A DNA stretch of 64,000 bases from an uncultured Clostridia bacterium (lineage in GTDB: Bacteria > Bacillota > Clostridia > Christensenellales > DTU072), in contig CALVJA010000001.1 of assembly GCA_944331875.1 (NCBI GenBank), positions 161,836-225,835 of the forward strand, written 5' to 3'. This document shows, piece by piece, positions 5,002-44,123 of the stretch. Each line of letters begins with the position of its first letter. Positions within the stretch are counted from its first letter, which is position 1. Below the pieces are notes generated by a model. It did no database searches. It was not told where the DNA came from and worked only from the letters and a program-made list of their open reading frames with translations. Made by a program: the position numbers and the translations under genes.

Positions 5002-5026
5002 GTAACGCGCGCCGATAGCGGCGGAA

Positions 5027-5092
5027 TGAAATTATTTTGCGCAAAATTATTTCACTTGCAACGCAAGCCGCATAACGCGGCTTGCGTTGCAA
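5027..5092 (+). repeat. short copy of the TTATTTCAC-hairpin intergenic repeat family
   Basis: TGAAATTATTTTGC/GCAAAATTATTTCA near-perfect inverted repeat (5027-5054, one T-T mismatch) containing TTATTTCAC (5047-5055). It is followed by a perfect 16-bp hairpin, TTGCAACGCAAGCCGC-ataac-GCGGCTTGCGTTGCAA (5056-5092). Same motif grammar as the copies at 18078, 35385 and 44057. Confidence 0.7.
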
Positions 5093-5100
5093 CAAAACGC

Positions 5101-17991: not shown

Positions 17992-18077
17992 CGTTTTGCG
18001 GCGTGTCTTTTCCGCCTGAGCTTTGAAAACCCCGCTTGCTAAGACCACAAGATAACATCTAAATCTAATGACCACAA

Positions 18078-18290
18078 CAAAATCCGCGAATAAAAGCATG
18101 GGTGTGTAAGATGTATATTTTGATTGAGCATTCAGCAAAACTTCTAGCGGATTTTATTTCACAAATTGAAACTTTGAGGCAAAGTTTCAATTTATTTCAC
18201 AATACGACCCCGCGGGGTCGTATTATTTCACAATTTTGCTACGCAAAATTATTTCATTCATTTGCGTCCGAATTGTCGGACGCAAATGAT
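18078..18290 (+). repeat. long copy 1 of a modular structured repeat: 5-prime stem domain plus four hairpins separated by TTATTTCACAA linkers
   Basis: AAAATCCGC (18079-18087) pairs with GCGGATTTT (18147-18155) around a 59-nt interior. Linkers TTATTTCACAA at 18154, 18192 and 18223, with variant TTATTTCATTC at 18249. Hairpins at 18165-18191 (12 bp), 18203-18222 (8 bp), 18234-18248 (6 bp) and 18260-18287 (12 bp). Homologous to 35385-35618. Confidence 0.8.
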
Positions 18291-18877
18291 TTTCTTCTTT
18301 TTATAGCGGAAACGATATTTTTAATATTATCGTCGAACTCGGGCATCACCAGCTGTATAGCTATTTCCTCCGCCGCGGCGAGGATACATACAGAGGTGAT
18401 GCAATATATAAGTATATCTTCGGTGCCTTGGGCCGCGCACATCGAATAGAAGAAGGGGATGAGATAGAATAATATCATCCCGATCTTGTTGCCCGCGGTA
18501 TGCAGCATCGCGAATTTTTTGAAGCGTATGCCCGTAACGACCGCGCCCAAAACCCTCATCAGGAAGAACGCTATCACTATGCCGAGCGTGCCGTAGTTAA
18601 GGGGATCCATATTGTAGAACACGACGAACGTGCCCGTCAGGGTCAATAGAACGTCGCCCACGGTGTCCATGGTTGAGCCGAAGCGGCTTTCGACCTTCAG
18701 CGCGCGGGCGATGACGCCGTCGAAAAGGTCGCTGACGCCTGCCAGCGCATATATTACATAGAATGCGGTTTCGTATGCGGGTATAAAAACTATCGCTATC
18801 GCGGCGGCTATGCGGTATACGGTCAGGATATTGGGGACCTGCTTCAGGAGCGCGCCGAAAAGATCTTTTATTTTCAT
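18254..18877 (-). CDS. CDP-alcohol phosphatidyltransferase family protein (PgsA-like)
   Basis: 207-aa membrane protein with the full motif D-x2-DG-x2-AR-x8-G-x3-D-x3-D in DLFDGVIARALKVESRFGSTMDTVGD. The last ~12 codons and the stop lie inside repeat copy 1. Confidence 0.8.
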   Translation of the reverse strand: MKIKDLFGALLKQVPNILTVYRIAAAIAIVFIPAYETAFYVIYALAGVSDLFDGVIARALKVESRFGSTMDTVGDVLLTLTGTFVVFYNMDPLNYGTLGIVIAFFLMRVLGAVVTGIRFKKFAMLHTAGNKIGMILFYLIPFFYSMCAAQGTEDILIYCITSVCILAAAEEIAIQLVMPEFDDNIKNIVSAIKRRKSFASDNSDANE

Positions 18878-19006
18878 GAAGCCATATTATCACATAAACG
18901 CCGCCGTGTCAAACCGAAGAGCGGGTATCGGCCATGTAACAAAGCGCCTCCGATATTCATAAAGTGTAATGAAAAGGGTACTACCCTAAAAAAAGGAGGT
19001 AACAAC

Positions 19007-19201
19007 GTGAACGGTTTCAACTTCGGTGGAGGCAGCTGCGATTGCATTTGTTGGATTATCATAATCCTCCTGCTGTGCGGCTGCTGCGGTAACGGCGGCG
19101 GTTGCGGCTGCTGTGAAATCATTATCATAATCCTCTTGCTGTGCTGCTGCGGTTGCGGTTGCAACTCCGGCTGCGCGAGGAACGATTACGACTGCAAATA
19201 A
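19007..19201 (+). CDS. Cys/Gly-rich tiny membrane peptide, probably YjcZ-like sporulation protein family (tentative)
   Basis: 64 aa: MNGFNFGGGSCDCICWIIIILLLCGCCGNGGGCGCCEIIIIILLLCCCGCGCNSGCARNDYDCK. GTG start 7 nt after a perfect AGGAGG (18994-18999). Two Ile/Leu hydrophobic cores flanked by Cys/Gly runs form an internal duplication. Followed by a terminator. Confidence 0.6.
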   Translation: MNGFNFGGGSCDCICWIIIILLLCGCCGNGGGCGCCEIIIIILLLCCCGCGCNSGCARNDYDCK

Positions 19202-34762: not shown

Positions 34763-34823
34763 TTTTATTTTTGCTGGAAATTTTATAAAAATTTCTTCGA
34801 AAGTGCAGTGATTCGAGAAAAGA

Positions 34824-34848
34824 CCCGTTTGACAGAACGGGCTTTTTT
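34824..34848 (+). terminator. rho-independent terminator of ftsY
   Basis: CCCGTT-tgacag-AACGGG-C followed by TTTTTT. Confidence 0.75.
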
Positions 34849-34980
34849 CATATGGTGGGAATATATATTCGCAAAAATAAAATCATTCCGACATCTTGCC
34901 GTATTTTTGCGGCTCTTTTCCGCAAAATCTACGACCTCCTTCGGAGGCGGATCGGTCGAGTATGGTATACACTTCCCTCC

Positions 34981-35285
34981 CGTTTTGCGAAAAATAGCTT
35001 GCAAATCTACGGCAATCTGCCGCCAAACACCTCATTCGAAGAAAACACTTATACAGGCAAACCGCTGTTCACGGTTTTATGTGAAAACTGTGATCCTGCA
35101 CTTTGGAGAGCAAAACGGGGCGCGAACGGCGCATAGTCCCGCTATAGCGCCGCCCGCGTTTCGTGCGATACAACGCAAAATAGTCTGCAAATCGGCGCCA
35201 AACACGCTTTTCACTGCGCCCAAATACATAGTAAACTGTATTCTTCTTTAGAGGCAAACACTAGCATAGGCGAATCGCTGTTCAT
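34981..35285 (+). repeat. two diverged direct repeats inside the long ftsY-rnfC non-coding region
   Basis: Unit B (34981-35072) and unit C (35157-35285) share, in the same order: CGTTT..GCG, AAAATAG(CT/TC)TGCAAATC, GCCAAACAC, and AAACACT..ATA.AGGC.AA.CGCTGTTCA. Indels of about 10 and about 40 nt separate these blocks. Confidence 0.6.
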
Positions 35286-35384: not shown

Positions 35385-35618
35385 CAAAATCCGCAGACAT
35401 AAGCAAGAGTGTATAAGATGTATTTTTTGATTGAGTATTCCGTAAAACTCTTAGCGGATTTTATTTCACAAATTGAAACTTTGCCCGCGAAGTTTCAATT
35501 TATATCACAATGCGACCCTGCGGGTTGCATTATTTCACAATTCCGCTTGCGGAATTATATCACCTTTTTGTGGCGGCATTCGCCGCCACAAAATTCGGCG
35601 CAGCCGAATTATTTTCGG
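35385..35618 (+). repeat. long copy 2 of the modular structured repeat (5-prime stem domain plus hairpin array with TTATTTCACAA linkers)
   Basis: AAAATCCGC (35386-35394) pairs with GCGGATTTT (35454-35462) around a 59-nt interior. Linkers at 35461 (TTATTTCACAA), 35500 (TTATATCACAA), 35530 (TTATTTCACAA) and 35555 (TTATATCACC). Hairpins at 35472-35499, 35511-35529, 35541-35554 and 35565-35593, plus an extra hairpin at 35594-35608. Confidence 0.8.
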
Positions 35619-35620
35619 TC

Positions 35621-35649
35621 TTTACAGTTTAAGGATGTTAAGGTATAAT
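35621..35649 (+). promoter_or_regulatory. sigma-A-type promoter for the rnf operon
   Basis: TTTACA (35621-35626), 17 nt, TATAAT (35644-35649). The rnfC ATG is only 9 nt beyond the -10 element. Confidence 0.55.
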
Positions 35650-35658
35650 AAAATAGAT

Positions 35659-36954
35659 ATGAAGATAAAGACTTTCAGGTACGGCGTGCATCCGGAGGAG
35701 AGGAAGGAACTGTCGAAAAACGCGCCTATCGCTGCGGTATTGCCGGGCGAGAGGGTAGCGGTTCCGATGTCCCAGCACATCGGCGCTCCGGCGGAGCCCG
35801 TTGTCAATGTCGGGGACAGGGTGAAAGCCGGCAGCTTGATAGGCAGGGCGACCGCCATAGTTTCCGCGAACGTTTTCAGTTCCGTCTCCGGCACGGTGGC
35901 GGCTTTGGAGATGAAAGAGGGCGTTTCCGGAGCGAAATGCCTTCACGTCGTCATCGAAAACGATTTCAAATACGAAGAGGAACGCTTGGCTATGCTGACC
36001 GATCCCGAGCGCGAGGAGATAATCGCGAGGGCTCGGGAGGCGGGTATCGTCGGAATGGGCGGCGCGGCGTTCCCGTTCGACGTAAAACTTTCCGTAAAAA
36101 ATCCCGTAGATATTTTGCTCATAAACGGTTCGGAATGCGAGCCGTACATAACCTGCGACTACAGGCTGATGCTGGAGCGCGCCGAAGGCGTGGTGAGCGG
36201 CGTAAAACTCGTCCGCAAAGCGCTCGGAGCCAAGCGCGCGGTGATAGCGGTGGAAGCGAACAAACGCGACGCGTTCGACGCACTTCAAAGATACGCCGCG
36301 GCGGAGGGGATAGAAACGGCTCTCGTCAAAACGAAATATCCGCAGGGCGGCGAAAAACAGCTTATATACGCTTTGACGAAAAGAAAAGTTCCCGCGGGGA
36401 AACTTCCCGGGGACGTCGGGTGTATCGTCACGAACGCCGCGACGGCATACGCGCTGTACGAAGCGGTCGTTTTCGGAAAACCGCTCTATGAAAGGGTCGT
36501 GACCGTCTCGGGACTCGCGGCGGCGCGGCCGGGGAATTTTTCGGTGCGCACGGGAACGTCGTTCGGTTATCTGGCAAAGCACGCGGGAATTGCTTCCGAT
36601 TTCGTGAAAGCGGTGCAGGGCGGTCCGATGATGGGCGTGTCTATGCACTCGTTGGAGCCTTCGGTCACGAAGTCCTCGGGGGCGCTTTTACTGTTGACGG
36701 AGGGAGAGATACGGGCGGTGGAACCTACGCCCTGCATAAACTGCGCGAGGTGCGCGAACGTCTGTCCGATGTCGCTGATGCCGATGAAAACGGACGCGCT
36801 GATACTTAAGGACAAGACGGAAGAGACGAAAAAATACCACCCCGAACTTTGTATAGAATGCGGGTCCTGCGCATATGTGTGCCCCGCAAAGCGCCCGCTG
36901 GTGCAGTCGCAGCGGCTGGCGAAGAAACTTATCCTGAACCGGGAGCGGAGGTAA
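35659..36954 (+). CDS. rnfC: Rnf electron transport complex subunit C
   Basis: MKIKTFRYGVHPEERKEL... is a typical RnfC N-terminus. Two ferredoxin motifs (CINCARCANVCP, CIECGSCAYVCP). The track ORF start at 35473 runs through the repeat and was rejected. Confidence 0.9.
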   Translation: MKIKTFRYGVHPEERKELSKNAPIAAVLPGERVAVPMSQHIGAPAEPVVNVGDRVKAGSLIGRATAIVSANVFSSVSGTVAALEMKEGVSGAKCLHVVIENDFKYEEERLAMLTDPEREEIIARAREAGIVGMGGAAFPFDVKLSVKNPVDILLINGSECEPYITCDYRLMLERAEGVVSGVKLVRKALGAKRAVIAVEANKRDAFDALQRYAAAEGIETALVKTKYPQGGEKQLIYALTKRKVPAGKLPGDVGCIVTNAATAYALYEAVVFGKPLYERVVTVSGLAAARPGNFSVRTGTSFGYLAKHAGIASDFVKAVQGGPMMGVSMHSLEPSVTKSSGALLLLTEGEIRAVEPTPCINCARCANVCPMSLMPMKTDALILKDKTEETKKYHPELCIECGSCAYVCPAKRPLVQSQRLAKKLILNRERR

Positions 36955-43057: not shown

Positions 43058-44060
43058 TATCGTTACGAAATTAGCGGGCGCCGAGGCTTTGGACGAGGGC
43101 GCCGCGATAATAAAAAGCGGCGGCGTCGTCGCTTTTCCCACGGAGACAGTGTACGGGCTCGGCGCCGACGCGTTCAACGAGGAGGCGGTAGCGAAGATAT
43201 TCGAGGCTAAAGGCAGACCCCAGGACAATCCGCTTATCGTACATATCCCGTCCGAAAGTTGGCTCGGGCGCGTCGCGGCATACGTCCCGGACGCCGCCTA
43301 TGAACTCTTCGACGCGTTCAGTCCGGGACCTCTGACGGTGATTTTACCTAAACGCAGCGATCTGCCGCTTGTAACTACTGCGGGGCTCGAAACTGTAGGT
43401 ATCAGGATCCCGAACAACGATATCGCTTTGGAACTCATCCGCCGCGCGGACACGCCCGTGGCGGCGCCGAGCGCCAATACGAGCGGGAGAGTTAGTCCCA
43501 CAAGGGCTCGGGACGTATACGAAGATATGGCGGGGCGGATACCGCTTATTCTGGACGGCGGCAGGACGGATGTCGGCATAGAATCCACGGTCGTGACGCT
43601 TGCGGCGGACACCCCGACAATACTGCGCCCCGGCGCGGTCACGGCGGAGATGATCTCCGAGGTCCTGGGGGAAGCTGTATATTTCAAGGGCAAAGTCAAA
43701 GTTGCCGAAGCGCCCGGCATGAAGTACACTCATTATGCGCCGCGAGTTCCGTGCATAGGCGCGCTGACCCCGCTTGACGCCTTAGCGGCGGCGAAGGAAC
43801 GCGATAATTCCGTCGTCGTCGGCGAAAGCGGGTTCGTCCGCGAAGCGGAAGCGCTCGGCTCGCGGGTCGTGGACCTCGGCGACACCCCCGAAAAATGTAT
43901 GCAAAACGCATTCGCGGCGTTGCGCGAGGCGGAAAAGATCTATAAATTTATCGTAATCGAGCACTTCGAAGGGAAAAAGGGGTATTACGCGCTGAACAAC
44001 AGATTGTCGAAGTCCTACGGAGGAAAAGTTTTTTGCGGCGAAATCGCCGCAAAAAAGTGA
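43044..44060 (+). CDS. tsaC: L-threonylcarbamoyladenylate synthase (Sua5/YwlC type, YrdC + Sua5 domains)
   Basis: YrdC block VAFPTETVYGLGADA and SANTSGR, plus a C-terminal Sua5 domain. Start moved to the ATG at 43044 after GGGGAG. Overlaps the upstream gene by 14 nt. Confidence 0.88.
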   Translation: MSSPDIVTKLAGAEALDEGAAIIKSGGVVAFPTETVYGLGADAFNEEAVAKIFEAKGRPQDNPLIVHIPSESWLGRVAAYVPDAAYELFDAFSPGPLTVILPKRSDLPLVTTAGLETVGIRIPNNDIALELIRRADTPVAAPSANTSGRVSPTRARDVYEDMAGRIPLILDGGRTDVGIESTVVTLAADTPTILRPGAVTAEMISEVLGEAVYFKGKVKVAEAPGMKYTHYAPRVPCIGALTPLDALAAAKERDNSVVVGESGFVREAEALGSRVVDLGDTPEKCMQNAFAALREAEKIYKFIVIEHFEGKKGYYALNNRLSKSYGGKVFCGEIAAKK

Positions 44061-44120
44061 AATAATTTTTCCGCGCAAAATTATTTCACTTTTTACGGCG
44101 GTGTTCGCCGTCGTAAAAAA
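44057..44120 (+). repeat. short copy of the TTATTTCAC-hairpin intergenic repeat family
   Basis: A 13-bp inverted repeat, GTGAAATAATTTT (44057-44069) / AAAATTATTTCAC (44077-44089). It is followed by a 12-bp hairpin with one G-U pair, TTTTTACGGCGG-tgttcg-CCGTCGTAAAAA (44090-44119). Overlaps the tsaC stop codon. Confidence 0.7.
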
Positions 44121-44123
44121 CAC

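Follow-up and report, generated by a model that had tools for sequence, protein, structure and literature searches.

The window examined here is a 64-kb stretch of the genome of an uncultured Clostridia bacterium (contig CALVJA010000001.1), and the copy counts given for it below are limited to that span. Two of its intergenic regions, at positions 18078-18290 (copy 1) and 35385-35618 (copy 2), contain copies of one module in which short hairpins alternate with a conserved linker, and which is a divergent relative of the Rfam motif Gut-1. Copy 1 is located downstream of an ABC-2 permease gene and runs up to a convergent CDP-alcohol phosphatidyltransferase gene at the 3' end of the latter; it has no promoter or gene downstream of it to serve. 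Copy 2 is located downstream of smc, ftsY, and an open reading frame (ORF) of 147 amino acids (aa), the upstream gene being at 34808-35251, and stops 10 nt before the -35 box of the rnfC promoter (TTTACA-17-TATAAT, 35621-35649).

Architecture of the two hairpin arrays

An earlier note on this DNA, made from its letters only, had claimed that both copies begin with the same closing stem around exactly 59 nt, and both direct reading and a pairwise alignment (83% column identity) confirmed that the two regions are copies of one module with this layout. In the 5' domain of copy 1 (18079-18155, + strand), AAAATCCGC (18079-18087) pairs with GCGGATTTT (18147-18155) over 9 bp, enclosing an insert of exactly 59 nt that contains no hairpin. 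An identical stem (35386-35394 and 35454-35462) encloses 59 nt in the 5' domain of copy 2 (35386-35462, + strand), which is 87% identical to that of copy 1. We were unable to find convincing covariation for a structure of the insert from these two sequences, and a metagenome scan with the window-specific insert returned only two matches, both of them chance matches in unrelated sequence, and further copies of this variant were not obtained. A small ORF in the insert was rejected as an explanation; the 31-codon ORF is present only in copy 1.

The 5' domain is followed by the hairpin array proper. In copy 1 (18156-18257, + strand), the linker ATTTCAC occurs at 18156-18162, 18194-18200, and 18225-18231 and, in the degenerate form ATTTCAT, at 18251-18257, and the hairpins between these linkers occupy 18163-18193, 18201-18224, and 18232-18250. 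In copy 2 (35463-35563, + strand), the linkers start at 35463, 35502 (ATATCAC), 35532, and 35557 (ATATCAC), and the hairpins occupy 35470-35501, 35509-35531, and 35539-35556. The 11-mer TTATTTCAC that contains the linker is exact at 18154, 18192, 18223, 35461, and 35530 and has one mismatch at 35500; its start-to-start spacing is 38, 31, and 26 nt in copy 1 and 39, 30, and 25 nt in copy 2, as had been reported. The linker had also been described as an unpaired 11-nt sequence. It is a conserved repeat, but the AA and TT of the 11-mer pair with the neighbouring stems, and the single-stranded core is thus the 7-mer ATTTCAC; the fourth linker, moreover, is degenerate. ATTTCAC occurs seven times on the + strand of the window, where approximately two occurrences per strand are expected. 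All seven lie within TTATTTCAC and are confined to the two copies and to two mini-modules described below.

The stems of the window copies are 8-14 bp in length, and their sequences differ between the copies in a manner that keeps the pairing. From copy 1 to copy 2, an A-T pair becomes G-C and a G-C pair becomes G.T in hairpin 2, and two T-A pairs become C-G in hairpin 3, the compensatory changes in these two hairpins having been quoted correctly in the earlier note; hairpin 1 of copy 2 contains one further T.G wobble. The copies are therefore separated by three double changes and two wobbles with pairing kept, and the wobbles, all read on the + strand, are two G.T and no A.C. The z-scores of the minimum free energy were -7.27 for copy 1 and -6.72 for copy 2, none of 200 shuffled sequences was equally stable, and the predicted folds of both copies reproduced exactly the hairpins described. 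The feature formed by copies 1 and 2 is real and non-random.

A fourth hairpin had been counted as a common part of the module; this part of the description did not hold, since the hairpins at this position are not homologous between the copies. The terminal element of copy 1 (18258-18302, + strand) is a 14-bp hairpin followed by a T-run, with hairpin 4 at 18260-18287, and is terminator-like on the + strand. The terminal part of copy 2 (35565-35618, + strand) contains two hairpins (35566-35593 and 35592-35610) followed by ATTTTCGG. The terminal hairpins at 18258-18289 and 35592-35610 passed a scan for intrinsic terminators, and what had been called hairpin 4 behaves in each copy as a local terminator-like hairpin outside the repeated unit. 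In copy 1, hairpin 4 coincides with the last 10 codons (FASDNSDANE) of the phosphatidyltransferase ORF (18254-18877, - strand), whose TGA stop codon falls within linker 4 (GAATGAAAT). The tails of phosphatidyltransferase homologues are unrelated beyond a conserved KRRKS.

Relationship to Gut-1 and the sense strand

At the Rfam gathering threshold (50 bits), there were no matches in the window. Scored by E-value instead, each copy had Gut-1 (RF01706) on the - strand as its top match, with 30.9 bits (E = 3.4e-4) for copy 1 and 36.5 bits (E = 1.1e-5) for copy 2 against the cut-off of 50, and both matches were full length (model positions 1-77). Gut-1 is a probable non-coding RNA proposed from covariation (Weinberg 2010, PMC2864571; Rfam), and is known from human-gut metagenomes and from no sequenced organism (Weinberg 2010, PMC2864571). 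Its consensus consists of three hairpins spaced by GUGAAAU, which is the reverse complement of ATTTCAC. The window copies share with it three short, sequence-variable hairpins separated by (G)UGAAAU linkers (four linkers and three hairpins per copy), the invariant 7-mer, and an origin in gut Clostridia, and compensatory change in the stems is found both in the window copies and in the family alignment described below. They differ from it in that the Gut-1 stems are only 5-7 bp in length, and in that the 5' CAAUGAAAU and the AAAUCCC..GGGAUUU hairpin of the model are absent from the window, which has instead CAACAAAATCCGC, the 59-nt insert, and GCGGATTTT.

When a representative genome of each GTDB species was searched for GTGAAATA boxes occurring three times at distances of 8-38 nt, at least 119 stretches were returned. 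The matches listed are mostly from metagenome-assembled genomes of gut and rumen Clostridia (Oscillospiraceae, Acutalibacteraceae, Christensenellaceae, and 'Eubacteriales'); matches in other phyla were regular, unrelated tandem repeats and were rejected as family members. Among the matches listed, 61 loci share one composite architecture. Read from the terminator hairpin, a direction that we call orientation P, this canonical element opens with a terminator hairpin flanked by A/T and with CAACGAAAT. The first arm, made up of an AAATCCC hairpin, two GTGAAAT-hairpin units, and a further GTGAAAT, comes next, and the element continues with a short hairpin, GGATTTATTTC, three ATTTCAC-hairpin units, and a final ATTTCAC. 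A long-range helix (GAAAT+N6 with N6+ATTTC) encloses the first arm; at least five versions of this helix, which covary, occur (AAATCC, TCGCC, TTGCCC, ACGCC, and TCGTTCC). The canonical loci are bona fide Gut-1 at the gathering threshold (51-79.5 bits), and the Rfam model spans mainly their first, terminator-proximal arm. The canonical Gut-1 family is larger than the Rfam model and comprises a terminator hairpin, two three-hairpin arms, and a covarying helix. In the window, CAAC AAAATCCGC...GCGGATTTT ATTTCAC corresponds to the CAACGAAAT AAATCC...GGATTTATTTC ATTTCAC of the family; the window copies keep the closing helix, whereas the first arm of opposite polarity, which is the tRNA-proximal arm covered by the Rfam model with its AAAUCCC hairpin, is replaced by the 59-nt insert without hairpins.

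An alignment of 39 promoter-proximal arms from other genomes (A2), on which the three-hairpin structure was imposed, had 91% of its cells paired and double-sided changes at 20 of the 21 pairs (149 cells). None of 500 shuffled alignments matched this result, and controls in which the structure was slid paired at 29-45%. A covariance model built from A2 only (R1) and run against the window with filters off gave only two significant matches, both full length and on the + strand, namely copy 1 (18148-18259, 51.2 bits, E = 1.4e-7) and copy 2 (35455-35565, 46.8 bits, E = 9.5e-7). On the same scale, scores are 70-103 bits for canonical arms, 51-69 bits for other one-armed variants, and 36-50 bits for the opposite arm. 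The earlier note had recognised no named motif here; the R1 scores and the Rfam E-value matches show that both copies are divergent relatives of Gut-1, and they belong to the Gut-1 superfamily of hairpin arrays as one-armed variants. The central observation of the note, that linkers are conserved while stems covary as expected from selection on a folded strand, proved to be general over the 39 independent members of A2. A folded single strand is under selection.

Three features of the canonical arms, compiled from both arms and many independent sequences, bear on the question of which strand is folded. On the ATTTCAC strand, G.T wobbles outnumber A.C mismatches by 27 to 6; the loops are C-GNA-G triloops or GNNA tetraloops; and a conserved tandem mismatch reads G.A/A.G, which on the opposite strand would be U.C/C.U. 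By these tests, the two arms mirror each other, and their sense strands run outward from the centre. The same wobble test on the closing helix, with 4 versus 2 at clean positions, did not clearly favour either strand. With the ATTTCAC strand as the sense strand of each arm, the Rfam orientation of Gut-1 would be antisense for the arm that it models, and the opposite polarity of the arms calls into question either the Rfam strand or the model of a single RNA. The sense strand of the window copies is the + strand, in agreement with the earlier note.

Genomic sites of the arrays

Mini-module 1 (5024-5098, + strand) consists of aTGAAAT, a hairpin, TTATTTCAC, and a 16-bp hairpin followed by promoter-like TTGTAT..TATACT, and is flanked by genes for a polysaccharide deacetylase and an M16 peptidase. 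Mini-module 2 (44030-44122, + strand), located between sua5 and rpiB, consists of an A/T-flanked terminator hairpin, GTGAAATAA, an imperfect hairpin, TTATTTCAC, and an A/T-flanked hairpin; it stops 3 nt before the -35 box of the rpiB promoter, promoter-like TTGTAA..TATACT lying just downstream. The two share the form (G/a)TGAAAT-hairpin-TTATTTCAC with large A/T-flanked hairpins around it. The stop codon of the sua5 ORF (44058-44060) falls inside GTGAAATAA.

All four window sites (the two copies and the two mini-modules) are on the + strand, directly behind + strand genes, and each of them has terminator-like hairpins at its end or beside it. Three of these sites stop just upstream of the -35 box of the next gene, two of them at 3-10 nt and mini-module 1 at approximately 8 nt plus a promoter-like hexamer. 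Neither a scan nor inspection by eye revealed a promoter in the 59-nt insert or ahead of either array, and the discrete + strand transcript that had been suggested thus has no promoter that we could find.

Among the matches listed, 28 of the 61 canonical elements (L003-L113; L numbers designate our loci and contigs) are located 39-72 nt downstream of a tRNA gene. The adjoining tRNA gene is always co-directional with orientation P, 20 different anticodons are represented, and the terminator hairpin begins 0-1 nt past the CCA end; one element (L036) follows RNase P RNA. Gut-1-type relatives are thus often adjacent to tRNA genes, unlike the window copies: there is no tRNA gene in the 64-kb window, so the co-directional spacing of 39-72 nt does not occur there. 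At the other end of the canonical element, there are at least 12 loci in which a -35 box begins directly at the last ATTTCAC (TTGAAA, 17 nt, TATAAT), and this promoter is followed by a conserved leader and ribosome-binding site (RBS; CAGAAAGGCGGTG) even where the first gene differs. The downstream gene is co-directional in 38 cases versus 17.

The commonest first gene encodes a 118-aa four-helix-bundle protein (PF05635 / TIGR02436). Among the matches listed, it starts 16-54 nt past the array in 14 of the 61 loci (L003, L011, L036, L043, L044, L047, L057, L069, L070, L074, L093, L103, L111, and others) and is near the element in approximately 23. PF05635 is the Avd-like family of diversity-generating retroelements (DGRs; PMC10053308). 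No PF05635 gene is present in the 64-kb window. The PF05635 gene next to arrays is often followed by variable small ORFs. A scan of IMG/VR viral contigs returned mostly unrelated AT-rich tandem repeats, the only true composite elements being L166, L167, L182, L188, and L197; in L197 and L167, a PF05635 gene lies beside a canonical two-armed element, and these contigs, although classed as viral, may be prophage or misclassified chromosome.

Duplicates within one genome are 98-99% identical over 215-247 nt and have sharp boundaries, the identity extending from the terminator hairpin to just past the last linker. Another contig of the same species (L243), whose phosphatidyltransferase is 97% identical, carries copy 1 (57.6 bits with R1), and its differences from the window are limited to two loops, linker 4, and indels. 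The fourth linker of L243 is an intact ATTTCAC where the window reads ATTTCAT. A 31-nt insertion in the window (18023-18053, GAAAACCCCGCTTGCTAAGACCACAAGATAA), located between the terminator-like stem of the permease gene and copy 1, is absent from L243. Two other contigs of the species were set aside as weak evidence of repetitiveness: L235 ends 86 nt before copy 1, beside a strain indel, and L236 begins in a hairpin loop.

In sister species (RnfC 75-76% and phosphatidyltransferase 71-74% identical), there were no R1 matches or linker arrays in 14-21 kb around the orthologous genes, and the orthologous spacer between sua5 and rpiB lacks mini-module 2. Both the rnfC and the rpiB promoter are conserved in these species, with neither the cassette nor a terminator at those sites. 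The segment containing a 64-aa ORF and the phosphatidyltransferase gene (18254-19201) is inverted relative to sister species (L245 and L246), and copy 1 lies at one of its borders. The elements are thus lineage-specific additions, located just upstream of promoters that were already in place or at the border of a rearrangement. The earlier note had listed a lack of retention in orthologous intergenic regions among the outcomes that would refute it, and the element is indeed not retained in the sister species. This speaks against an ancient function tied to the locus and in favour of a cassette that is dispersed and possibly mobile. The cassettes lie between transcription units, beside terminators or promoters, and come and go between lineages. 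The 64-aa ORF (19007-19201) is rich in Cys and Gly, and 30-nt repeats occur within it at 19055 and 19121.

Since 2010, Gut-1 has remained an orphan among Rfam motifs, and the sole published statement about it concerns its occurrence in human-gut metagenomes. The window, whose own element is a degenerate member, extends the family to divergent one-armed and minimal forms in ordinary operon spacers. The two-armed architecture with its covarying helix, the position behind tRNA genes, the promoter and RBS extension, the PF05635 neighbour, and the opposite polarity of the arms offer new handles on its function.

Possible functions of the arrays

We tentatively favour the view that the array is a dispersed terminator/insulator cassette that is transcribed as the 3' end of the unit upstream of it and whose linker is read by a trans-acting factor; we regard this as possible rather than probable. 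The array would form the 3'-terminal part of the upstream transcript, in which stable hairpins, each followed by U-rich UUAUUU, may cause RNA polymerase to pause or terminate and may keep out 3' exonucleases, thereby insulating one transcription unit against a promoter that follows or a gene that converges on it. The unit of the family is the conserved (UU)AUUUCAC together with a hairpin of free sequence in which only pairing is kept, the invariant linker presumably serving as the recognition site of the factor. In canonical members, the opposite arm may act on transcription arriving from the other side. The cassette would spread, or be homogenised, as a unit in the manner of repetitive extragenic palindromes (REPs) and bacterial interspersed mosaic elements (BIMEs).

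Several of the results described above are consistent with this proposal: the folding and covariation, the Gut-1 link, the + strand polarity, the sites behind + strand genes, the terminator-like ends, the conservation of the rnfC and rpiB promoters where the cassette is missing, the junction with tRNA CCA ends, the abutment on -35 boxes, the near-identical duplicates within genomes, and the retention of copy 1 in L243. The arrays resemble tandem intrinsic terminators in their GC-cored hairpins with stable loops, their U-rich tract (UUAUUU), their covarying stems, and their location between units, and their flanking hairpins bear A and T tracts as in intrinsic terminators. Unlike tandem terminators, however, the inner units have only three to five U residues, the CAC is invariant, some arrays lie in 5' leaders, the arms have opposite polarity, and a helix encloses one of them.

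These differences are among the points that weigh against a terminator/insulator cassette. The inner units, which are followed only by TTATTTCA, fail a simple terminator scan, and the invariant CAC of the linker is not explained by a U-tract. A terminator array needs neither sense strands on opposite sides nor an enclosing helix, the link to PF05635 fits the model poorly, and the 59-nt insert is not accounted for. In several loci, the array ends 16-29 nt ahead of a start codon, a gap too short to contain a promoter, which implies that the array is read through as a 5' leader. Finally, neither a target-site duplication nor a mobilising enzyme was identified, although no genome-wide search for transposases or REP-associated tyrosine transposases (RAYTs) was made. 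If the cassette does prove to be a mobile insulator, both the annotation of operons and models of expression would be affected in many gut Clostridia.

A doubtful though still quite conceivable alternative is a selfish, non-autonomous single-stranded DNA element of the REP/BIME/REPIN (REP doublet forming hairpin) kind, mobilised by an enzyme that recognises a hairpin plus ATTTCAC and having only incidental effects on transcription. REP and BIME sequences act as 3' stabilisers or terminators of mRNA and are mobilised as single-stranded DNA. The earlier comparison of the element with a REP/BIME-like mosaic was a fair analogy: both are extragenic, 3' of genes, and multi-copy, and both are mosaics of hairpins in both orientations with motifs beside the stems. 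The stem of a REP is conserved in sequence (a palindrome of about 35 nt) and flanked at its 5' side by GTAG, whereas in the Gut-1-type arrays the linker is the only fixed sequence and the stems vary freely; the window stems are not conserved and no GTAG accompanies them. REP and BIME sequences number hundreds per genome; the count for the source genome covers 64 kb, with two full copies and two mini-modules. BOX, Correia, and similar repeats, including miniature inverted-repeat transposable elements, share a modular, A-B(n)-C-like build, a variable number of units, intergenic sites, and in some cases terminator or promoter activity; BOX and Correia elements have sequence-conserved modules, terminal inverted repeats, and target duplications, none of which was seen in the Gut-1-type element.

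The mirror-image arms, with their sense on opposite DNA strands, would be natural for two-fold symmetric DNA and are awkward for one RNA, and the loops are mostly C-GNA-G triloops of the d(GCGAAGC) mini-hairpin type, which is known for its stability. The dispersed near-identical copies, the presence or absence at orthologous sites with copy 1 at the border of an inverted segment, and the precise junction to CCA ends across 20 different tRNAs also speak for mobile single-stranded DNA. However, target-site duplications were not found, nor were terminal inverted repeats seen beyond the linkers, and the search, which did not extend genome-wide, identified no transposase or RAYT. The window copies, moreover, are 13-17% diverged with pairing kept, and the identities of hairpins A, B, and C are conserved across families of Clostridia, both of which indicate constraint over a long time and not a recent copy-and-paste event; the orientation with respect to tRNA genes is fixed in 100% of cases.

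It is rather unlikely that the array is a trans-acting structured small RNA (sRNA) whose repeated unpaired 7-mers titrate a protein, as in CsrB and RsmZ, or pair with targets. The classification of Gut-1 as a probable non-coding RNA (Rfam; Weinberg 2010) would fit such a role, as would the several identical unpaired motifs, the strong covariation, and the strong terminator adjoining the element. CsrB and RsmZ likewise display a single short motif many times over on a hairpin scaffold; their motif, GGA, is located in hairpin loops and they have their own promoter, whereas here the motif lies between the hairpins, and we found no promoter within or ahead of either window copy. An sRNA is also difficult to reconcile with the wobble, loop, and tandem-GA tests, by which one arm of the canonical element is antisense whichever strand is transcribed, with elements that abut the -35 boxes or start codons of their neighbours, and with the absence of conservation at orthologous loci.

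Less likely still, we consider it conceivable that Gut-1-type arrays are the nucleic-acid partner of Avd-like PF05635 proteins and form with them a self-propagating cassette that homes to the 3' side of tRNA genes and terminators. The protein would recognise hairpin-plus-ATTTCAC units in single-stranded DNA (or RNA) without a canonical transposase, and the window copies would be orphan one-armed derivatives. Such a partnership, if true, would be the first non-DGR context for that large orphan protein family.

We regard as improbable a double-stranded operator or iteron array in which ATTTCAC/GTGAAAT boxes are bound, perhaps by the PF05635 protein, to control the next promoter: the last linker at -35 in at least 12 loci, with the conserved promoter and RBS extension behind it, the PF05635 gene 16-54 nt downstream in 14 of the 61 matches listed, and the co-directional excess of downstream genes are as expected of an operator, but double-stranded binding requires neither hairpin covariation, nor an asymmetry of G.T over A.C, nor a long-range helix that covaries. 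There is no promoter or gene downstream of copy 1 to be controlled, and the rnfC and rpiB promoters are unchanged in sister species that lack the array.

Other identities were rejected. TGTGAAATA agrees with the strict DnaA box TGTGGATAA at only 6 of 9 positions, and its flanks vary in relatives. A clustered regularly interspaced short palindromic repeat (CRISPR) array would have repeats of 23-55 nt and spacers that are unique and non-palindromic, against repeats of 7-11 nt here, where every 'spacer' is a hairpin. Integron attC sites and toxI-like repeats do not match the architecture. Nested pairing of GUGAAAU with AUUUCAC across the arms cannot, for topological reasons, coexist with the covarying closing helix, and covariation is never seen in the linkers. 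As sigma-70 hexamers, the linkers lack the key A2 of the -10 box.

A minor observation concerns the gene downstream of copy 2. The rnfC promoter lies approximately 9 nt upstream of the ATG (window 35621-35661), and the promoter is conserved in sister species (L237 and L240). This suggests that the rnfC mRNA is leaderless or nearly so.

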